DNA of 44,515 bases from a virus (IMGVR_UViG_3300013947_000010); one strand, 5' to 3'; numbered from the stretch's first letter, positions 1 to 44,515 are shown. The notes: generated by a model from the letters alone, not told the origin. Numbers and translations: made by a program.

Positions 1-77
1 GGGTGCGCTGACATATTCGCCCGTCATAAAGATTTTCGGGTATTTCGCCCGTACCTTTGCGGAAATCTCTGAGAAGA
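1..77. repeat. Terminal direct repeat, identical to 44439..44515 (assembly overlap of a circular contig)
   Basis: The first 77 nt (gggtgcgctgacatattcgcc...ctctgagaaga) recur exactly as the last 77 nt. The start codon of ORF 44133..44465 lies inside the repeat and the gene order runs on across the junction. Confidence 0.9.
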
Positions 78-7192: not shown

Positions 7193-7205
7193 AACAACCT
7201 CCTAC

Positions 7206-7313
7206 AAGTAGTAAAAGTAGTTCAAATTCAAGATTTCCGGTAACTTTCACCAGATAGCCGTCCTACTGGCAAAAGTTTACGCAAAAACGGGTTTTCCACT
7301 ACTTTTACTACTT
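7206..7313. repeat. 108-bp near-palindromic element, copy 1 (PAL-1)
   Basis: Begins AAGTAGTAAAAGTAGT and ends ACTACTTTTACTACTT. The central hairpin is CCAGATA-GCCGTCC-TACTGG. It has the same length and layout as 11553..11660 and 30116..30223. Confidence 0.9.
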
Positions 7314-10487: not shown

Positions 10488-10542
10488 GTTGTTTACCTCC
10501 TATAATCTGAAACGGATTGTTTTCTTGTCTCTTGACGATTAT

Positions 10543-10571
10543 ATGTTAGCACAATTCGGATTGCTTGTCAA
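10543..10571 (-). promoter_or_regulatory. Sigma-A-type promoter of the island operon
   Basis: The minus strand reads TTGACA, a 17-nt spacer, then TAACAT with a TG extension (TGCTAACAT). Confidence 0.5.
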
Positions 10572-10786
10572 CCCCTTTTCGATAAATTTTCAATCTTTTT
10601 TGTGTTGGCTGTCCATACATATAATATAGAAAAACAACCCGCCGCAATTTCCCCATGTTCCCGCCGTTTTACTCTATTGCGGTAAAGTGTTAAAGTGATA
10701 CCCGCCAAATCCGCACGATTTTGTGAAAAAATCCGCCCCGAAAACCAAGCTGAAATCTCAGCCCAATTCCCGGAGCGGGTCTGCAT

Positions 10787-11420: not shown

Positions 11421-11552
11421 CGGTTTTACCTCCTAAAAGTCGTTTCAAAAGTCGTGTTCCCATGTCCGTTTTGCCCCGTACAGACCCTTGAAAACAGACT
11501 CCTATGATGTAATAGAGTCCTCTCCCCGGAGAACTTCTTATTCTTAATGGAG

Positions 11553-11660
11553 AAGTAGTAAAAGTAGTGGAAAATCGATTTTTCCGGTAACTTTTGCCAG
11601 ATAGGGGGTCTACTGGAGAACTTATACGCAAAAACTGATTTTGAACTACTTTTACTACTT
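11553..11660. repeat. 108-bp near-palindromic element, copy 2 (PAL-2)
   Basis: The 16-bp arms match those of PAL-1 and PAL-3. The central hairpin is CCAGATA-GGGGGTC-TACTGG. The sequences just inside the arms are inverted relative to PAL-1 and PAL-3. Confidence 0.9.
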
Positions 11661-15026: not shown

Positions 15027-15368
15027 TTATCCCTCCGTAAGTCCGAAAGAGCAACGCAGAGCGGTATCAATACGGCTCATTTCCTCTTTCGTACAATGTC
15101 TAATGAAACTCTGCAACCTGTCCTTTGCGATTGTCTGAACATTTTCGCAGAGGGCAATAGAGGGGACTTTGCAAAGGACAGGTGCGTGAGTGGGAAGATA
15201 CTTCTTGTCTTTCGAGGTGAGGAAAACGACCTCGACATACGGCGAGTGCCGATTTCCTATATTGTTCGAGATAATAACGGCGGGTCTATTTCCGTGAGGT
15301 CTGCTTTCCACTACCGCCTTGCCCTCCCGCACGAACCAAATATCACCTCGGTAATATCGTCTGTTCAT
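15027..15368 (-). CDS. PemK/MazF-family toxin-like endoribonuclease
   Basis: The best start is ATG at 15368 (MNRRYYRGDIWFV). The motifs GDIWFV...NRPAVIISNN...VVFLTSK...PTH match the MazF/PemK fold signature. Confidence 0.7.
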   Translation of the reverse strand: MNRRYYRGDIWFVREGKAVVESRPHGNRPAVIISNNIGNRHSPYVEVVFLTSKDKKYLPTHAPVLCKVPSIALCENVQTIAKDRLQSFIRHCTKEEMSRIDTALRCSFGLTEG

Positions 15369-15388
15369 AGTGTGTTCTCCGTTCCACA

Positions 15389-15405
15389 CGCCCCATAAAG
15401 GGGCG
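15389..15405 (-). promoter_or_regulatory. GC hairpin downstream of VR2 (DGR target-recognition element)
   Basis: The plus strand reads CGCCCC-ATAAA-GGGGCG, the same hairpin as at 34274..34292. It is part of a 44-nt block that is 43/44 identical downstream of both VRs. Confidence 0.8.
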
Positions 15406-15410
15406 CAGAT

Positions 15411-16043
15411 TTAAGATTTAATAGAGAAAGCGGGGCGAACACCGGTGGCGACGGAAGCGGCGCTGTAGGCCGCATAACCAGAGTCGTGGACAGTGGCGAA
15501 ATCGGCGGCTGAGTCATTGGGCGTATTCTGCAACCAGTACCATTCCCAAGTACCCGTGTCCTTGCCTTGGAACGCGATACGGTTTCTAATATCTCCCATG
15601 AGCGGGAGGTATTCGCCGCCGACCTTATCCTCGTAGGGGTTCTTTCCAAAGACCTCCATAGCGGTAAGCAAACGGAGCTTATCGTCCTTATAAACGGGCT
15701 TCATACGAGCCTTGAGGGAGTCGGGGAAAGCGTCAAGGATTTCGCCGTTGAGCTTCTTACGAAGCGCACAGGCTTCATAGCCGCCCCTGTTGGTGCTGTT
15801 ATCGTTCATGGGATATTCGGTCTTGAGACAGTCCACGAACACAAACAGCATACCGTCAGTCTCTTTCCGCATAGCCATAGCGGAAACTTCTTCACCCGTC
15901 TTGAGGGTGAAGTCAATAATGTCACCGACTTCGTATTCATCGGTCTGCACCGTAGTAGAGCGGCGCACGGTCAGTTCCTCGGTCTGAATGTTAAGGAATT
16001 TCTCGAACTCAGCGAGGAGAGTCTTCTTTTCGGTATTAGTCAT
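15411..16043 (-). CDS. DGR target protein 2: stand-alone C-type-lectin-fold / DUF6273-like variable protein
   Basis: 210-aa ORF with no signal peptide or transmembrane segment. The C-terminus (WYWLQN...GVRPAFSIKS) parallels target 1 and contains VR2. Confidence 0.85.
   Translation of the reverse strand: MTNTEKKTLLAEFEKFLNIQTEELTVRRSTTVQTDEYEVGDIIDFTLKTGEEVSAMAMRKETDGMLFVFVDCLKTEYPMNDNSTNRGGYEACALRKKLNGEILDAFPDSLKARMKPVYKDDKLRLLTAMEVFGKNPYEDKVGGEYLPLMGDIRNRIAFQGKDTGTWEWYWLQNTPNDSAADFATVHDSGYAAYSAASVATGVRPAFSIKS
15432..15512 (-). repeat. DGR variable repeat 2 (VR2)
   Basis: The 81-nt alignment to the TR shows 16 differences, all at positions where the TR coding strand has adenine. Confidence 0.9.
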
Positions 16044-16086
16044 GATTTTATCCTCCTAAGATTATTTCTTGTCTTGCTGTGATTAT

Positions 16087-16115
16087 AAGATAACACACAA
16101 AAGATAGATTGTCAA
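16087..16115 (-). promoter_or_regulatory. Sigma-A-type promoter directly upstream of DGR target 2
   Basis: The minus strand reads GGTATTGACA, a 17-nt spacer, then TATCTT with a TG extension (TGTTATCTT). AGGAGG and the ATG at 16043 follow. Confidence 0.55.
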
Positions 16116-16133
16116 TACCTTTCAGATAATTTT

Positions 16134-16763
16134 TTATCCTTTTTGTGTTGTGTTGCGGAGGTCTGCCACATACGGTAATCCCGCCATCAGAATATCGCAG
16201 TATTCGTTCCACTCACTCAGCTTGTGTCCCTGCCGATAATCAAGAATGTTCATCACATTCTCGTAGGTCATAGTGACTGTGCGCCGCTGATTGTAGCTTG
16301 AGGGAAGAAGCTGTACCATCTGCCGCCATAGCTCCTTGTCCTTGGTCTCAAGGTACTTTAAGCGGTTCATGTTGAGAGCGTTGATAATGCAGGAGCAGAC
16401 AACATCTTTCGTCCATCTGTCGCAGTCCTCAAAGCTGAAATCCTCAACGGTGAACTCTTTTGCGGTCAGCTTGTGCATGGTGGAACAGGAATTGGCAGTT
16501 GTGCCGACCTTGTATGTATCAAACTCTTTCCACCAATACAGCGGGGCGGTAATGTCCATAGCGACAAAAATCTGTCGCAGATACTTTCTGTGCGGCTGTC
16601 CCGCCGCATACAGTTTCCGCATGAGGGCAAGGTCGTTTTCGCCGAGACACATTTTGTCGTAGTCAAACTTACTGTCCGACCTGTCCCAGCTGTTCAAAGG
16701 GTTTCTCATACCACGGATAGCGTGTTCAAATCCCCATGTAACGATGTGTTCTACCTTAATCAT
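16134..16763 (-). CDS. ThyX-like FAD-dependent thymidylate synthase (divergent)
   Basis: 209-aa ORF whose pattern (HRKYLRQIFV...ITAPLYWWKEFDTYKVGTTANSCSTMH) resembles the ThyX core. No search was run. Confidence 0.55.
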   Translation of the reverse strand: MIKVEHIVTWGFEHAIRGMRNPLNSWDRSDSKFDYDKMCLGENDLALMRKLYAAGQPHRKYLRQIFVAMDITAPLYWWKEFDTYKVGTTANSCSTMHKLTAKEFTVEDFSFEDCDRWTKDVVCSCIINALNMNRLKYLETKDKELWRQMVQLLPSSYNQRRTVTMTYENVMNILDYRQGHKLSEWNEYCDILMAGLPYVADLRNTTQKG

Positions 16764-30085: not shown

Positions 30086-30115
30086 GATAATTTCCTCCTA
30101 AAATTTTGATTGTTG

Positions 30116-30223
30116 AAGTAGTAAAAGTAGTTCAATTTCGGTTTTTGCGTAAACTTTCGCCAGTATGCGCGTATCTGGGAGAAGTTTACCGGAAAAACTG
30201 ATTTTCCACTACTTTTACTACTT
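30116..30223. repeat. 108-bp near-palindromic element, copy 3 (PAL-3)
   Basis: It has the same 16-bp arms. The central hairpin is CCAGTA-TGCGCG-TATCTGG. It lies between the endolysin stop codon (3 nt away) and the holin start codon (30 nt away). Confidence 0.9.
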
Positions 30224-32076: not shown

Positions 32077-32388
32077 TTATACCTCCTTTCCCGTCAGCAG
32101 GACAGTCATTGCTTGACGAAGTTCCTCAATCGTGCGATTTCGGTCTTCCTCCGCTTTCTGTTGCTCGGACTTCTGACCGAGAACAAACCAAGATTTTCCG
32201 TCACGAACGATGTTACTGAGGAGAACCATGTCGGTATAGACCTCCTCATTCTCACCATCGAAAATCTTTACCGTACCGAGCTTGTCCTCGAATACGGAGT
32301 CGGCAATCTCACCTTGGGCAATATAGTTATTGCCGTTAAGGGTGAGATTTTCCAACTGTGTACCGTCACTCAGAGTGATTTTGTACAT
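32077..32388 (-). CDS. Hypothetical protein
   Basis: The best start is ATG at 32388 (MYKITLSDG) with GGAGG 9 nt upstream. It overlaps the 3' end of the RT gene. Confidence 0.5.
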   Translation of the reverse strand: MYKITLSDGTQLENLTLNGNNYIAQGEIADSVFEDKLGTVKIFDGENEEVYTDMVLLSNIVRDGKSWFVLGQKSEQQKAEEDRNRTIEELRQAMTVLLTGKEV

Positions 32389-33574
32389 TCTCAAGAACCT
32401 CCTTTAATTGATTGAACAGGGTATCTAAATTTTGTCGTTGCAGTTTGCTCATGATTTTGTAGTGACCTTTGAACCATGATTTGTACCAATTCTCAAACGC
32501 TACGGGAGTTATAACGCCTTTCTCGGCAACCTTTTTCATTTTCCTACGCATATCGGTAAGCCGCTTCGGATTGATTTTCTGAACCACTCTGCCCGTTTCC
32601 GTCAGCGAGTATTGCACTTGCAGAAATCTCCAATAATCAGACAGCTTACAGATACGGGTCTTTCGTAGGTTGACCGTGATACCAATGGTGTCCGCTATTA
32701 CCGTAATATCCTTGAGTAGAGCTTCTAAAAACTCTTTGCTCTCGTCTATCACATAGCTATCATCGGTGTATCGAGCGTAAAACGGCACGGAACAGACGAT
32801 TTTCACATAATTGTCTATGGGTATCGGATAACTGATACCCGCCGCTTGCGCTACTTGGTCTCCGATGTTTAGGTGCTTTCCCATGAACTTTTCGCCCGTC
32901 AAAAGCTGTTTGTCGATTTGAGCGTGTTCCAATGAATTGAAAACCGTGTGCATACAGTTCTTAAATTCATCATCGTCCATATAGGAAACATCAACCTTTG
33001 CACGGTCAAGCGTTTTGCGTAGTAACCACAGGGCGGTAGGGTCTGACACATACTTTTCCACCAACTCATAGAAAACATCGTGACGAATATTGTCGTAGTA
33101 TTTCGAGTAGTCAATCAGTAATATGTAGCCCTCGTTGGAATGGTGTTGTTGGTAATACTTCCGAAGATGGACTAACAATCTCTTTCGTGATAAATCTATC
33201 CCTCTATCTTTTAGACTCGCACAGTTATCATAGATTAGGTACGGTCTGAGGGAGGGCGTTAAGACTTCATCACACAAGCTATGTTTTACAATCCTATCAT
33301 CGAACTGTTCACCGCTCACCCATCGTGTACGACCTCGTTCGTGCAATACGAAGTCCGAGGTTGGCTTAAATTCGTAGGTTCGTTCTTTGAGTTCCCGTTG
33401 TATCTTCGACAGACCGATAAGGTAACTCATTTCAAATTTCTGTATTGGCGGCTTCCAATCGCTACCTTGCTTGGCTCGTAGGAAGCCGTCATACAGAGCA
33501 TTTCCATCAAATATCTCACGCTTATAACCGCAGTTCTCGAAAGAAGCGGTGTCGTGTTTAGCATTTACCGTCAT
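32366..33574 (-). CDS. DGR reverse transcriptase
   Basis: 402-aa ORF with the RT motif C (FYARYTDDSYV) and the NIGDQVAQAAG segment at the position of the DGR-type IGxxxSQ motif. It lies immediately downstream of the TR. Confidence 0.9.
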   Translation of the reverse strand: MTVNAKHDTASFENCGYKREIFDGNALYDGFLRAKQGSDWKPPIQKFEMSYLIGLSKIQRELKERTYEFKPTSDFVLHERGRTRWVSGEQFDDRIVKHSLCDEVLTPSLRPYLIYDNCASLKDRGIDLSRKRLLVHLRKYYQQHHSNEGYILLIDYSKYYDNIRHDVFYELVEKYVSDPTALWLLRKTLDRAKVDVSYMDDDEFKNCMHTVFNSLEHAQIDKQLLTGEKFMGKHLNIGDQVAQAAGISYPIPIDNYVKIVCSVPFYARYTDDSYVIDESKEFLEALLKDITVIADTIGITVNLRKTRICKLSDYWRFLQVQYSLTETGRVVQKINPKRLTDMRRKMKKVAEKGVITPVAFENWYKSWFKGHYKIMSKLQRQNLDTLFNQLKEVLENVQNHSE

Positions 33575-33602
33575 AGCGGAGGGACAATTTCTCCTTTCTC
33601 TG

Positions 33603-33637
33603 ACTCCGAAACGCTCAAATGGCTATTAAATCGGAGT
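33603..33637 (-). promoter_or_regulatory. Hairpin in the TR-to-RT spacer (candidate DGR RNA spacer structure)
   Basis: On the plus strand ACTCCGA (33603..33609) pairs with TCGGAGT (33631..33637), enclosing a 21-nt loop. Confidence 0.35.
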
Positions 33638-34255
33638 ATCGAAATCGGGGCGAACACCGTTGTCGTTGGAAGCGTTGTTGTAGTTCGCATTACCATTGTT
33701 GTTGACATTGGCGAAATTGGCGGCTGAAACAGAAATTGCCCCTTTGAATTTGTTGTCAGATTTTCTCCAACCTTTGATAAGGTTTACTTCTGCCTGTATC
33801 ATTTCCCCGAACCGAAGATACTGGTTCACATCAACAGGAAGCGTTTCAATGGCATATTGCAATTCTTGAGTGAGCGTGTAACACAGCCCGATTGCCCTAT
33901 CTTGGTGAAGTCTCCTCTCTGTGAGTTCTTCCTGTACAGTAGGGTAGATACTGTTTGCAATGTATACCTCCCGTGTGATTGCACGAAGACAATTCACAAT
34001 GGTTTTGCGCTCGTCCTCGATGAACCACTCGTCAAATGCGTCCCATCGTCTTTTCTGCCGTGTGTAAGTAGCTTGCTGTTTTTCATCAAGCTCATCAAAC
34101 GGCTTCCCGAACCGTTTTTCCAATCGCTTTTCGGCTTTGACTGTATCAAAACCGAAATCTCGGAGAAGCAAATCGGTAATATCCTTTCGCAGTTTGGTTA
34201 ATTGATGGAAAACCTCGAACTGTGAGGGTTTCCGTTTGCTTTTCAGTACAGACAT
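33626..34255 (-). CDS. Avd-like DGR accessory protein; the ORF runs on through the TR
   Basis: The best start is ATG at 34255 (MSVLKSKRKPSQF) with GGAGGAA upstream. The protein is helical and basic, with an Avd-like C-terminal helix (AEVNLIKGWRKSD). The last 30 or so codons are the TR itself (AANFANVNNNGNANYNNASNDNGVRP). Confidence 0.55.
   Translation of the reverse strand: MSVLKSKRKPSQFEVFHQLTKLRKDITDLLLRDFGFDTVKAEKRLEKRFGKPFDELDEKQQATYTRQKRRWDAFDEWFIEDERKTIVNCLRAITREVYIANSIYPTVQEELTERRLHQDRAIGLCYTLTQELQYAIETLPVDVNQYLRFGEMIQAEVNLIKGWRKSDNKFKGAISVSAANFANVNNNGNANYNNASNDNGVRPDFDTPI
33647..33727 (-). repeat. DGR template repeat (TR)
   Basis: The 81-nt core contains 25 adenines on the coding strand, mostly in AAY codons. 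It aligns without gaps to VR1 and VR2. Confidence 0.9.
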
Positions 34256-34273
34256 TGTAGTTCCTCCATGTGT

Positions 34274-34292
34274 GCGCCCCATAAAGGGGCGC
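34274..34292 (-). promoter_or_regulatory. GC hairpin downstream of VR1 (DGR target-recognition element)
   Basis: The sequence is GCGCCCC-ATAAA-GGGGCGC, located 5 nt past the target-1 stop codon. Confidence 0.8.
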
Positions 34293-34296
34293 AGAT

Positions 34297-35472
34297 TTAA
34301 GATTTAATAGAGAAAGCGGGGCGAACACCGAGGCCGGCGGAAGCGTAGCCGTAGGCCGCAAGACCAGTGTCGTCGACATAGGCGAAATGGGCGGCTGATG
34401 CAACATCTCTCAGCCAGAACCATTGTCTATTGGAAATCATAGACGGGTCGTGAGCAAAGAGCGGGAACTGAGACTTGTCGATGATGTACAGATACGGAGT
34501 GGTCGAGCCATCGTTACCCGCACCGAAAATCTTACCGCCGTAAACATTCTGTTCGGTCATAAGCTCAACTGTACTGTTGTACCAAGAACCACCGCTCGGC
34601 TTACCGTTGGTAACGGCATTGACGAGCAACTGACGATGGGACAGGATATGACTTGAGCCAAATGCGCTGTTGATTTGTGTCTTTGCCTGTGCAAGCCCCT
34701 CTGTGTACATCTTAGAGCCGATGTAACCACCCGTAGTGATGTTCGTGTCGTTCATAACATGGGTGTACAGGTTTGTATCGGGGACAATTACGACATGATG
34801 GGTGGTGCAAGAGGTATCTCCCGTCTTGTAGTAATAATCGAAAGCGGCAATACGCCAGTTGACACCACCGATTACCCAGTAATCTCCGATGTACAGGTCG
34901 GCAAAAGTGCCGTTTGCAATAGCCGCCCATTGTGCGGCGGTCACGCTCGTGCCGAGGTTCTTACCACGATAGATAGCATTGTGCGCCCCCGCATTATTGA
35001 ACAGCAGAGCCGCCAGCTCGGTTGCACTTGCCTGTGCCGCCTGTGCGGAATTTGCCGCCGAGGTTGCGCTTCCACTCGCCGCTGTCGCAGAGTTCGCCGC
35101 CGCCGTTGCTTTCTGAGAAGCGGTAGTAGCGGAGGAACTTGCAGAAGAAGCCGAGCTTGCGGCGGCGGTTTTTGCGTTCTCAGCGTTCTGTGCCGATGTT
35201 GCCGCTTCGGACGCTTTTGTGGTCGCTGTACTGGCGGCATTGGTAGCCTGTGTTGCTTTCTGAGAAATGGTGTCCATGTTCCCGGCAAGCTGGTTCATGG
35301 CGGCGTTCATGGCGTTTGCGTCTGCCGCCCCGAAGAAAGACTTTTCCTTTTTGGTGTACACGGTCATGTCCTTAAAGGAAACTGTACCGTCCTCGTTGTT
35401 GACCTGTGCATACTTTTTCAACCCATTCCACACAGCGTCTTCATAATCCGTGGGTAAATTTGTCCATGCCAT
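34297..35472 (-). CDS. DGR target protein 1: tail fibre / receptor-binding protein with a C-type-lectin-fold variable C-terminus
   Basis: 391-aa ORF with a MAWTNLPTDY N-terminus, an Ala/Ser/Thr-rich coiled stalk, and a C-terminus (WFWLRD...GVRPAFSIKS) that contains VR1. Confidence 0.85.
   Translation of the reverse strand: MAWTNLPTDYEDAVWNGLKKYAQVNNEDGTVSFKDMTVYTKKEKSFFGAADANAMNAAMNQLAGNMDTISQKATQATNAASTATTKASEAATSAQNAENAKTAAASSASSASSSATTASQKATAAANSATAASGSATSAANSAQAAQASATELAALLFNNAGAHNAIYRGKNLGTSVTAAQWAAIANGTFADLYIGDYWVIGGVNWRIAAFDYYYKTGDTSCTTHHVVIVPDTNLYTHVMNDTNITTGGYIGSKMYTEGLAQAKTQINSAFGSSHILSHRQLLVNAVTNGKPSGGSWYNSTVELMTEQNVYGGKIFGAGNDGSTTPYLYIIDKSQFPLFAHDPSMISNRQWFWLRDVASAAHFAYVDDTGLAAYGYASAGLGVRPAFSIKS
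34318..34398 (-). repeat. DGR variable repeat 1 (VR1)
   Basis: The 81-nt alignment to the TR shows 17 differences, all at TR adenine positions. Confidence 0.9.
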
Positions 35473-38509: not shown

Positions 38510-41500
38510 TTACTTTGCGAATACATAACCGTTAGCTTTCTGCTGTGTCACCACAGCGTCATTGATAGTACGGTTGCCAATCTGAACAATGGTTCGCTCC
38601 TCCTTGTCAGCCTGTCTCTTAGCGTCCGTAGCGATTTCCCGCAAGGTGGGTTCAACATACTCTCGGTAAAAATCACGCATGGTGGAAGCCATCGTACTTT
38701 CATCACGGGAGTTTCTGTAAACACTCTCGGACTCGTCATAGACGGACTGCGAAAGGAAGTTCGAGGGGTCATAGGTCACTTGAGTAGCGAGATGGGAGTT
38801 CACAGCGTCCGCACTTACAAGGACAGAACGAATGATAGCGTTCGCACTCGTAACCAAGGTGCTGTTGAGCGTTCTCCAAATGGGGAGGAACTGCGCCATA
38901 CCCGCAATGATGGAACTGTGCATAATCTGTCCCATCTGGAAACGGTTGAGGACTTCGGTAGTGCCGTTCACATGACCTACCATTTCCGCACCGTTCTCAC
39001 CAGCTAAGAACATAGAGCCGTGGAGACTTGCCCCTCCTGCGTACTTCGGAATAGACTGCCAAAAACTGTTCGGCGTGATGATACCGCCGTCAGCCATCAG
39101 CTTAAATGCGCCGGAAGCAGAAATCGTACCGCCGTCAGAAAGACCGAGCCAATTCTTAATGCTTCCCCACCAACCCTTTAACAGATTGACGGTTACGCTG
39201 ACCGAGCCGCCGATATACTGTGATACCCAAGAGGAGACATAGTACCAACCGTTTTTGGCAAGACCAATCGCCTTGTTGACAGCACCGCCCATATTGTTCG
39301 ATACCCAATTCGAGACCGTACTCCATGCGTTTTTCACAAGCCCAACGGCTTTGTTTACCGCACCGCCGATAGAATTTTCGACCCAACTCTTGACGGTACT
39401 CCAACCATTTTTAATAAGGTTGATAGCCTGTGAGAGTGTAGGAATGTTGCCAATCCAGTTCTTTACGGTAGACCAGCCGCTCTTAATGAGGTTGATTGCT
39501 TGCGACAGAACGGGGATATTTCCAACCCAAGTCTTGACCGACTTCCACCCCTCTTTAACAAGCTGTATCGCTTGGTCTAAGGTGGGGATATTACCGACCC
39601 AACCTTTAACGGTCTGCCACCCTTTCTTCACAAGGTCGATACCCTGTGAAATAACAGGAATGTTGCCAATCCACTCTTTGACGGAGTTCCATTTCTCTTT
39701 CACAAGCGAGATAGCCTGTGAGAGTGTAGGAATGTTGCCAATCCAGTTCTTTACGGTAGACCAACCTTTCTTCGCAAGCGAAACAAAGGCTTCAATCGAA
39801 ATACCCTCTCCGGCGTTCTCATTCCACCAAGACTTAGCCTTGTTCCACCACTCGGAAGCGGTGTTCTTGATGTTCACGACCAAATCCGAAATCGGGTTAT
39901 CCTTGATGAACTTGGAAATGGGGTCGATGATATTCTTCTTCACCCACTTACCGATAGCCTTAAACGGCTTTGCAAGTCCCGCCAACAGACCCTCGCCAAG
40001 ATACACACCCACTTCGTCACGGAAGACCGTAGACGGAGAGTGAATACCGAGAGCTTCCTTGAAACCATCAACGAACCCCTTGATGAAATCGGTGATAGCC
40101 TTGATAGCGGTGTTCCACCCCTCAACAATGCCGTCCCAAATCGCCTGTCCAACATCTTTGAACCATTGCCCAATGTCTTTCAGCGCATTTGGGAGCGTTT
40201 CGGTGAAGAATGTCACAAAGCTCGTTTTGATTTTCTCCCACAGTTCGGGAATTGTCTGTGTGAAGAAGTTCGGGAGTGTTTCGGTGAAAAATGTCTTAAA
40301 GGACGATTTCACCGTTTCCCATACTTCGGGGAGCGTTTCGGTGAAGAACTTCTTGAAAGCATTGCAAATGTTCTTGACCGCCGTACCGACCTTATAGCCC
40401 ACATCATGACCGAACTGAGACCAGTCGAAATCCTTGATAGGCTGTAACAGGTCAGACCACCATTTACGGATTGTTTCGGGCAGATTTTTGAGCCAACTCA
40501 CAAAATCATTCCAAATACCGGGGATTGTTACGGTGAAGAAGTTATGGAAGAAATCTTTGATTTCCTCCCAATGCTCTGTGATAGCGATAATGCCGTCCGT
40601 GACAAGACCAACGGCGAGACCAATCAAAGCACCGATACCCGCTCCTATCGGGCCACCACAAGCACCGATAATAGCACCGATGCCTGCCGCCGCCGCTGTT
40701 GAGCCAGCGGGGATAAGCAGACCATTGAGCCAGTTCAGACCGTTCTTGATTGCGTCCCAAATACCAACGAAATAAGCGGGAATACCAGCAATAATACCCA
40801 TGACTCCCGCTCCGAGAGCCGCACCCGCCGCCGTAGCAGAGCCGAGTCCAAGGTTTGTTGCCGCCGTACTGAGCGCACTCGCAACGGCACTATCGGCAAA
40901 TGCCGAGGTAATCCACGCCGCAAGCCCCTTACCGAGAACTGCGCCGCCGCCCACAGACAAGATACCGCCGCTGATAATCTGAGCAAAGTTCTCACCATCA
41001 AGCGCATTTTTAACTGCGTCAATGAGACCCGCCGCTTCGAGAGCGATACCCGTGATAAGCAATGTGATACCTACCGTAATCGTGAGCGGAGTGCCTAAGC
41101 CGAAACCTTTCAACTGGTTAATCCATTGCAGAGCGTCAAGAACGCCCTTAGAGACTTTCCACGCCGCCATACCAAGACCGATTGCGCCAACCGTAGTCAA
41201 AATATGACCGAGACGAGTATGAAAGAGGTCGCTCCAGCTGTCGATTTCACCCGTCAAGCCGAGCCATTCTTTCATCTTCTCAACAATGCTACCAACCTTA
41301 GACTCCACAAGACCACCGAGGAAGTCATACTGCGGGAGGTCAATGTCAAAACCGCCACCCCCAGCGCCGCTTCCTGCTCCTCCACTACCACTCGAACCAT
41401 CGTCCTGTCGAATGATGTTGAGTTCGTCAATGCCGAGTAGATTATCTTTCAGTTTCTTCGCCGCCTTTGCCGCACCGCCGAAACCGTCCTCTGCACTTTC

Positions 41501-44132: not shown

Positions 44133-44465
44133 TTACCTCCTGTAAATAATGTGATTTTTGTCTATCACAGCCCGGTACCGTCCGAGCATACGATAGATTG
44201 TTGCGTCCTGTGTATTCGGTATAGGTTCGAGAAGCATACGAGTGAAATTGCGTTCCATAAGAAGTTCATCTATGAAAGCGGCAATCTCTTTGCACTCGGC
44301 TTTCTTACCTGTTTTTTTGTTCGAGTAGACATTAAGCTCATAAGTCACCGCCGCATGATTTTCCTGCCCACTCTGCGTCTGAGAGTTTCGGAATGTGGCG
44401 TTGTCTATCTCTACGAGAGATACGCAAGGAAAAGAGGCGGGTGCGCTGACATATTCGCCCGTCAT
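44133..44465 (-). CDS. Tail completion / tail terminator-position protein
   Basis: 110-aa ORF between the gp10-like gene (across the junction) and the major tail gene. Its start codon lies inside the 77-nt terminal repeat. Confidence 0.5.
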   Translation of the reverse strand: MTGEYVSAPASFPCVSLVEIDNATFRNSQTQSGQENHAAVTYELNVYSNKKTGKKAECKEIAAFIDELLMERNFTRMLLEPIPNTQDATIYRMLGRYRAVIDKNHIIYRR

Positions 44466-44515
44466 AAAGATTTTCGGGTATTTCGCCCGTACCTTTGCGG
44501 AAATCTCTGAGAAGA
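44439..44515. repeat. Terminal direct repeat, identical to 1..77
   Basis: Exact 77-nt match to the start of the window. Confidence 0.9.

Follow-up and report, generated by a model that had tools for sequence, protein, structure and literature searches.

A complete diversity-generating retroelement with two DUF6273 targets in a temperate gut phage

The stretch of viral DNA IMGVR_UViG_3300013947_000010 (44,515 nt; hereafter the window, meaning the whole stretch that was analysed) contains on its minus strand a diversity-generating retroelement (DGR) that is almost certainly real, complete and canonical, and currently or recently active. The cassette spans positions 32366..35472 and comprises, in minus-strand order, a target gene carrying the first variable repeat (VR1), a GC hairpin, an open reading frame (ORF) for an Avd-like protein, the template repeat (TR) and a reverse transcriptase (RT). 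Upstream of it are the genes for tail proteins and the tape measure, and downstream those for a CBM5/12 protein, for an Amidase_2-SPOR-CW_7 endolysin and for a holin. A first-pass annotation had proposed a complete DGR between tail and lysis genes, and all the components it named were found, each passing an independent test.

The source is a temperate, circularly assembled 44.4-kb gut phage. Identical 77-nt sequences are present at both ends of the window (1-77 and 44439-44515), so the assembly is circular and the genome measures 44,438 bp. Two independent assemblies of 44,557 nt, whose contig names include k119, would agree with this length if their ends overlap by 119 nt. All the integrase-bearing contigs are of circular form and of no more than 46 kb. 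A host search of a genome collection returned only an RT 51% identical, from a rabbit Lachnospiraceae metagenome-assembled genome (MAG). The DGR class, the DUF6273 target family and the two-target layout have all been published already, the phage itself being the new example; what is known about DGRs is unchanged and the window is a clean example of it.

Repeats and flanking signals

The mismatches between TR and VRs are too dense for repeat detection seeded with 8-mers, so the whole window was scanned with the TR as template and its adenines masked. Exactly three copies were identified: TR, VR1 and a second variable repeat, VR2, all on the minus strand. The TR (33646..33727) is 82 nt long including a shared 3' G and contains 25 adenines; its 81-nt form is 33647..33727. 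VR1 (34317..34398) has the same 82 nt including the shared G and forms the last 27 codons before SIKS-stop in target gene 1. VR2 (15431..15512; 81-nt form 15432..15512) is located at the 3' end of target gene 2, at a distance of 18.2 kb from the TR. In either ORF the VR accounts for the final ~31 residues. The same masked scan applied to viral contigs returned only the TR of one 99%-identical fragment and no further VRs.

VR1 differs from the TR at 17 positions and VR2 at 16, all of them adenines of the TR and none at any other base. With 25 adenines in 81 nt, the chance of 33 out of 33 is ~5e-22 (hypergeometric, 8e-12 x 6e-11). The first-pass annotation had attributed the 33 differences to TR adenines, and re-alignment within the window gave zero non-adenine mismatches; the positions it listed for the 81-nt TR with 25 adenines, for VR1 (34318..34398) and for the hairpin (34274..34292) proved exact. 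It was also right about the existence of VR2 and its 16 differences, giving no coordinates for it; the remote target is 18 kb away and outside the 32366..35472 cassette. Read in the frame of the VRs, the TR comprises 11 AAY codons plus TAC and GAC, with 24 of the 25 adenines at codon positions 1-2. Mutagenesis of its adenines reaches no stop codon and recodes 13 codons, giving ~1.4e14 possible peptides.

The three copies end in a shared G at 33646 (TR), 34317 (VR1) and 15431 (VR2); a shared repeat end had been noted before, and the identity runs one base beyond the end then given. At the next base the TR has A whereas both VRs have C, and a common TTTC then precedes complete divergence. GATTTC (TR) and GCTTTC (VR) are invariant in all 21 IMG/VR relatives with enough upstream sequence, and since the A/C difference is fixed in all 17 relatives it is a repeat boundary and not a mutagenised site. 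The initiation of mutagenic homing (IMH) region of VR1 (34293..34329, minus strand) comprises the GC-rich GGTGTTCGCCCCG (34317..34329) and then the VR-specific CTTTCTCTATTAAATCTTAAATCT, the same being found at VR2; after GGTGTTCGCCCCG the TR carries ATTTCGATACTCC where the VRs carry CTTTCTCTATTAAATCTTAAATCT.

The GC hairpin 3' of VR1 (34274..34292, minus strand; GCGCCCC-TTTAT-GGGGCGC) has a 7-bp stem and a 5-nt loop and is located 5 nt past the stop codon of target 1. Its stability is unusual (z = -4.9), none of 200 shuffles folding as well. The 3' flanks of VR1 and VR2 are identical for 43 nt, hairpin included. At VR2 the IMH tail and hairpin occupy 15388..15430 (minus strand), with the hairpin copy at 15388..15406, and at both VRs the hairpin is placed 24 nt downstream. 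Equivalent hairpins follow the VRs of relatives, with an outer pair that covaries. The sequence asymmetry between IMH and IMH*, proposed earlier, is thus kept at both VRs and in relatives, as is the downstream hairpin. To judge from these sequences, IMH/IMH* and the hairpin probably mark the homing recipient, their function in homing being putative.

Allele diversity among assemblies

Exact-protein look-ups identified a 100% identical RT in at least 24 public assemblies, and the look-ups with the MazF-like gene beside VR2 also gave at least 24 assemblies. The TR is identical in all 14 same-phage loci that have it. Among other assemblies with the identical RT, VR1 is represented by 8 alleles in 12 loci and VR2 by 5 alleles in 7 loci. 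Compared with the TR these 13 alleles sum to 223 differences at adenine sites and four at other sites, the share of VR2 being 84 adenine differences and no others. The adenine positions that vary are 24 of 25 in VR1 and 22 of 25 in VR2.

The sequences around the VRs vary far less. Around VR2, loci L037-L040 have no flank mismatches (100% identity), and in L039 there are no mismatches over ~4.9 kb of flank vs 14 changes in VR2. In loci L028 and L034 the VR1 sequence departs from that of the window at a single adenine site, and 1-2 changes are found elsewhere. Since both VRs vary while TR and RT are identical and the flanks are often 100% identical, the case for activity is strong, though indirect. 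Two alleles are mosaics, L032 for VR1 and L037 for VR2, where the 5' part equals the window allele and the 3' part is different or nearly TR-like. These mosaics would fit a 3'-anchored, partially completed homing starting at the IMH end. The allele series as a whole (13 VR alleles at two loci against a TR that does not vary) is a natural dataset for the direction of homing and for selection on the variable residues.

Many contigs of the same phage terminate in or beside VR1 or VR2 (L030-L033, L036, L041, L042, L044 and L127). These ends may reflect heterogeneity, and the shared repeats could equally cause them. Phages bearing DGRs may be systematically fragmented at their targets in metagenomic assemblies.

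Proteins of the cassette

The DGR reverse transcriptase (402 aa; 32366..33574, minus strand) was assigned from PHROG, PDB and motif evidence. It matches the PHROG reverse transcriptase phrog_1423 with E 6e-49. Its best PDB match is 8ub7, the RT of the Bordetella DGR ribonucleoprotein (E 2.6e-10), with group II and retron-type RTs trailing at ~2e-3. Identity with Brt from phage BPP-1 of Bordetella is 23% (E 5e-14). Motif A contains D155 and motif C is RYTDDSY with D271 and D272; the YTDD motif reported earlier is therefore present, the catalytic aspartates are intact, and the closest solved structure is the Bordetella DGR RT. In the paper describing the BPP-1 structure, residues F66, R74, I76, I181, G182 and Q187 of the Bordetella RT (bRT) are said to contact template and dNTP. 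Identical counterparts of F66, R74, I181, G182 and Q187 were identified here, and I76 is replaced conservatively by Val. The segment IGDQVAQ aligns with I181-G-S-L-T-S-Q187 of bRT, keeping I, G and Q, with S186 replaced by A.

The accessory gene (209 aa; 33626..34255, minus strand) is an ORF that continues in frame through the TR. The protein has 1,323 homologues, one of them named Avd-like by a source. The PHROG model for the Avd protein of DGRs matches the window protein with E 5e-4 and 31 of 35 sampled members of the family, the best with 2.8e-6. The AlphaFold2 model is a helical bundle with a mean confidence score (pLDDT) of 72, for which Foldseek returned 2rld, 2gsc, 4dwl and 8ub8_C, that is, bundles of the IVS family and BPP-1 Avd, with probabilities of 0.84-0.99 and non-significant E-values. 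Position, PHROG family and fold are the grounds on which the protein is called Avd-like, and it is a candidate Avd. The avd-like gene of the first-pass annotation hence stands on its position and on the PHROG model across the family, the assignment at the sequence level being weak.

Because its ORF reads through the TR, the Avd-like protein ends in a disordered C-terminal tail that is rich in Asn and resembles the VR peptide. The tail is present in 35 of 35 sampled family members, which match the PHROG of the small target through it. A few homologues of 175-189 aa are without the tail, which is thus probably dispensable.

Conservation in relatives and folding of the template RNA

Relatives of the element comprise 23 IMG/VR contigs with RTs 58-99% identical. 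In each of the 21 with enough upstream sequence, ~70 nt separate the RT from a TR that lies upstream of it, and a VR follows after another ~680 nt in the same direction; the mismatches of these 21 TR-VR pairs are almost exclusively at adenines. The remote VR of the small gene matches the TR of its own genome in four of five relatives (both loci on one contig), with 14-16 adenine differences and 0-1 others, and is followed by GCTTTC and the GC hairpin. In the fifth pair (L020 with L114 and L110) there was no VR match to its own TR.

An RNA alignment comprising the avd 3' end, the TR, the spacer and the RT 5' end was made for 17 distinct relatives, among them Acutalibacter phage Fontainebleau and a Lachnospiraceae MAG. 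The covariation model of these 17 sequences contains 40 pairs with 96.6% of the cells paired, vs 45-58% when the partners are slid. Compensatory changes are found in 27 of the 40 pairs, and the observed score is attained by none of 500 shuffles.

One element, on the minus strand like the rest, is a long-range duplex of 12 bp, the putative stop duplex. Its 5' strand, GGGGCAAUUUCU (33731..33742), lies 3 nt upstream of the TR and pairs with 33581..33592; 99% of the cells are paired and 8 pairs show compensatory changes. Directly 3' of the TR is the proposed template strand of the priming duplex, formed by A and UUUC (33641..33645), in which A33645 is the proposed first templated base. The UUUC pairs with GAAA at 33595..33598 in a 4-bp duplex invariant in the 17 sequences. 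The primer strand and the 3' strand of the stop duplex are contiguous (33581..33598) and comprise GAAA, GG and AGAAAUUGUCCC, containing the Shine-Dalgarno-like AAGGAG of the RT. A local GGAG/CUCC hairpin was proposed by RNAalifold in this region; it shows one-sided changes only and excludes the 3' strand of the stop duplex, and the long-range duplex was preferred.

Three stem-loops complete the fold. Spacer stem-loop 1 (33603..33637) has 7 bp, ACUCCGA/UCGGAGU, and a nested helix of 2-3 bp, in the position of the Avd-binding stem-loop of BPP-1. The spacer hairpin of the earlier annotation exists, as ACTCCGA/TCGGAGT; the spacer alone is thermodynamically unremarkable (z = +0.25) and its structure is revealed only by comparative analysis, with 6 of the 7 outer pairs and both modelled inner pairs compensated (all three in the RNAalifold version). 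In the short stem-loop CCG-CUAUGA-CGG (33563..33579) the loop contains the start codon of the RT, and a conserved UAAAU comes next. Its CC/GG pairs are conserved, the two most distant relatives substituting CUGUG/CACAG and CGGC/GCCG, and UAAAU is nearly invariant. The third is a hairpin inside the RT gene (33517..33556, codons 7-19) with a UUCG tetraloop (UACG in relatives), a candidate RT-binding stem-loop; 9 of its 13 pairs are compensated, the encoded amino acids changing while the pairing stays.

The fold overlaps the ribosome-binding site, the start codon and the first 19 codons of the RT, because the spacer is compressed. Within 33572-33598 the AAGGAG precedes the ATG by 16 nt and forms part of the priming and stop-duplex strands. 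By burying the Shine-Dalgarno sequence and the start codon the RNA may block RT translation, and the RNA could then be either translated into RT or used as template but not both, a built-in autoregulatory switch.

A model for mutagenic homing

The RNA spanning the avd 3' end, the TR and the RT 5' end would fold so that the 12-bp duplex joins the sequence before the TR to the spacer, while the 4-bp UUUC/GAAA duplex would put a spacer adenosine beside the TR 3' end. The three stem-loops would be protein-binding sites. The RT and the Avd-like protein would cis-prime cDNA synthesis at the priming duplex, and the RT would copy the TR with random misincorporation opposite adenines until halted at the upstream duplex. 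By analogy with BPP-1, priming would occur from A33595, the first copied base would be A33645 and the stop would be near 33728..33730; these predicted start and stop sites fit the observed TR/VR boundaries. The cDNA would then replace the homologous VR at two loci, each marked by GGTGTTCGCCCCG, the CTTTC... tail and the GC hairpin. The expected outcome is the recoding of 13 codons at the C-terminus of a DUF6273 domain, putatively C-type-lectin-like and presumably ligand-binding, in each of two proteins, the tail-fibre protein and the small one encoded in the replication module. This mechanism is an analogy supported by covariation and not a new one.

The two diversified proteins

Target gene 1 (391 aa; 34297..35472, minus strand) comprises a tail-fibre-like N-terminal part, with PHROG tail-fibre matches at residues 50-190, and a C-terminal DUF6273 ending in VR1. 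The DUF6273 match is below the Pfam cut-off (21.5 vs 23.5 bits). Residues 237-391 were aligned by hhalign to the profile of the small target with 98% probability and E 8e-14 over 133 columns. On this profile comparison, homology of the C-terminal 155 residues extends over the whole small-target domain and is not confined to the VR.

Target gene 2 (210 aa; 15411..16043, minus strand) lies in the replication module and encodes a stand-alone DUF6273 protein of small size. Its matches are above the cut-off for Pfam DUF6273 (E 2e-11) and to phrog_21980 (E 2.5e-28). Across its 657 homologues, scaffold residues that are fixed are interspersed with hypervariable positions. Its neighbours, within a primase/D5-helicase module, are a phrog_6721 protein and a MazF-like toxin. 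Among 78 viral loci with the small target, RT and Avd genes are absent within 3 kb in every case, D5-like or PriCT genes are nearby in 13-16 and MazF in 6. Inspection of the small-target sequence gave no evident signal peptide.

A sigma-70-like promoter is found upstream of target gene 2 (16087..16115, minus strand; TTGACA, 17 nt, TG-TATCTT), identified by consensus match only (10/12 in the consensus scan). Two intergenic segments, 10521-10600 and 16065-16144, are 70% identical and each has a minus-strand TTGACA-N17-TATAAT-like promoter. As the second is just upstream of the VR2 target, the paired segments suggest a common early or independent promoter type.

The PemK/MazF-like toxin (15027-15368, minus strand) begins 42 nt past the VR2 target gene. 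No recognisable antitoxin is found upstream of it, and a 99-aa protein with a weak PHROG transcriptional-regulator match comes after it. A functional tie between the small target and this toxin, for instance as its antitoxin, was considered and is weakened by their adjacency in only 6 of the 78 loci.

We regard as possible, but rather doubtful, that the small remote target is a non-structural binding protein, expressed early or in lysogeny, and not a virion receptor-binding protein. The location in the replication module, here and in Fontainebleau, is consistent with this reading, as are the 78 loci with no RT or Avd in the vicinity, the lack of an evident signal peptide, the promoter-like site of its own and the MazF-like toxin that is sometimes downstream. 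Candidate roles would then be those of a counter-defence, superinfection-exclusion or host-factor-capturing module, and the phage would be diversifying the small target in parallel with its tail fibre.

Cultured phages with related elements

In BPP-1 (mtd-avd-TR-brt), the prototype DGR, the genes are arranged as in the window, from the tail genes through the target with its VR at the 3' end, the accessory gene, the TR and the RT to small ORFs and the endolysin. Both elements have TR-to-VR differences at adenines only, and a GC-rich IMH core with a VR-specific tail and a hairpin. The cryo-EM structure of the BPP-1 RNA comprises an Avd-binding stem-loop, a 4-bp template:primer duplex ending at the priming adenosine, an avd:Sp 'cPRT Stop' duplex, a short stem-loop with A-minor adenosines and an RT-binding stem-loop, with Sp A56-G57-C58 before the 12-nt duplex strand. 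The RNA described here has, in the same order and spacing, a post-TR stem-loop, a 4-bp template:primer duplex, a stop duplex of ~12 bp with its strand starting two nucleotides past the priming A, then a short stem-loop with adenosines and a long RT-proximal stem-loop. The cryo-EM paper predicted such RNA elements in 207 other DGRs; the covariation in a DGR family of Bacillota phages, far from Bordetella, independently supports that RNA model in a compressed form.

The two systems differ in several features. Besides the RT divergence given above (23% identity), the accessory protein has 209 aa here vs 128 aa in BPP-1, with no detectable sequence similarity. The TR has 82 nt vs 134 nt and is here inside the avd ORF. 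The intergenic spacer is ~72 nt vs ~144 nt, its 3' half overlapping here with the RT start region. The target domain is DUF6273 here and Mtd there, and there are two targets here, one of them 18 kb away.

The layout is shared with Faecalibacterium phages Lelie and CP11 and Roseburia phage Shimadzu, where one DGR serves a large and a small DUF6273 target (PMC11792537). They have one TR and two VRs, in a large tail-associated protein and a small one, each VR at the C-terminus of DUF6273. In that study, as here, activity was deduced from adenine-specific variation among cognate genomes (PMC11792537). The RTs are only 25-29% identical to that of the window (25% in Lelie), and those phages have cultured hosts whereas this one has none. 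The small target of the window gave no tblastn match to Lelie at E <= 1e-5, and its match in Shimadzu is 26% identical. Gut phages nd4/nd12 also have DUF6273 targets, tentaclin and tgt2, shown to be C-type-lectin-like (PMC10743442), but both targets are inside the cassette, the VR of target 1 is near the 5' end and RT identity is 26-30%. A census of 2021 states that remote DGR targets were systematically missed (PMC8144416).

Acutalibacter phage Fontainebleau (ON453893) is the nearest cultured phage, with 40% identity in the RT and 40% in the small target. As its RT is the best match among deposited phages, the window phage is distant from all of them. The cassette has the same order upstream of holin and amidase, and the same RNA elements with compensatory changes. 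Its VR1, beside the cassette (~34.9-35.3 kb), has 16 adenine and 2 other differences. Its VR2 (~9.3-9.9 kb) has 15 adenine differences and no others and belongs to the hypothetical protein WAK78934.1, 26 kb from the RT. The small gene is placed between DNA polymerase I and a helicase, and after each VR come an IMH of the GCTTTC type and a GC hairpin. Differences are the Pol I module, in contrast to the primase/D5 helicase of the window, and the separate annotation of the avd and TR ORFs. Annotation of the DGR is limited to 'reverse transcriptase', and the paper describing the phage is silent on this DGR. The annotated RT start is apparently too far downstream, since conserved N-terminal codons and the RNA hairpin lie upstream of it. 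The small DUF6273 target is thus also present in a cultured, inducible prophage of Acutalibacter muris (OMM12, gnotobiotic mouse), which makes tractable the question of why a second, apparently non-tail protein is diversified.

Alternative explanations

Several observations weigh against a canonical element that is active. Activity is deduced from differences between samples and not within one population, and the four non-adenine differences among the alleles are all in VR1. The Pfam RVT_1 score of the RT (29.4 bits) is just below the cut-off of 29.6. The Avd-like protein and its profile had no Pfam match and no PDB sequence match, and hhalign to BPP-1 Avd was negative (0.1% probability, with a shallow alignment of Neff 1.5). 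For the small target a fold search yielded no assignment to the C-type lectin fold, the VR segment having pLDDT <50. In the RNA, the priming duplex is invariant and so cannot be tested by covariation, and the local GGAG/CUCC hairpin could form in place of part of the stop duplex.

The borderline RVT_1 score and an Avd unrecognised by Pfam would suit ordinary repeats beside an unrelated RT of retron or group II type, an explanation to which we give practically no credence. It is effectively refuted by the adenine-only pattern, given its chance probability, together with the adenine-specific differences between samples. The DGR RT is moreover the best structural relative, well ahead of group II and retron-type RTs; Rfam at gathering thresholds returned zero known RNA families in the whole window, hence no retron msr/msd or intron RNA, and the full DGR anatomy is present with a BPP-1-like RNA fold. 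It could also be proposed that only VR1 is a true homing target and that VR2 is a paralogous copy kept similar by recombination with it, as the 43-nt identical flank could support gene conversion. This is extremely improbable, because every difference among the VR2 alleles, or between them and the VR1 alleles, falls at the position of a TR adenine, as the VR2 counts against the TR indicate, and VR2 has its own IMH and hairpin. Remote VRs, besides, match their own TR in four of five relatives and in Fontainebleau.

An element with intact parts where mutagenesis has ceased, the VR alleles being old standing variation sorted among lineages, is very unlikely. Some alleles are indeed shared, the VR1 allele of the window by four loci and one VR2 allele by L038 and L040, and in the Faecalibacterium prophage study some DGRs were found with no read-level signal (PMC11792537). 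Old variation is however difficult to reconcile with L039, where flanks of ~5 kb are 100% identical despite the changes in VR2, or with L028 and L034, whose single VR1 change at an adenine site accompanies so few elsewhere. Evident constraint on the RT, the TR, the IMH and the RNA structure likewise argues for a DGR that is or was until recently active.

Other features of the genome

An intergenic element of ~108 nt is present in three copies, read on the minus strand, at 7193-7313, 11540-11660 and 30103-30223. It has perfect 16-nt inverted terminal arms, AAGTAGTAAAAGTAGT and ACTACTTTTACTACTT, around a long imperfect hairpin. No Rfam match was found for it and, with only three copies, no covariation. 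The copies at 7193 and 30103 are directly upstream of a minus-strand ORF (the holin in one case), and the copy at 11540 is ~120 nt upstream of the nearest one.

The tape-measure ORF (1,466 aa, minus strand) contains two sets of diverged in-frame tandem repeats. The first comprises repeats of 72 nt (~5 copies) at 39390-39772, and the second two repeats of 81 nt at 40188-40349.

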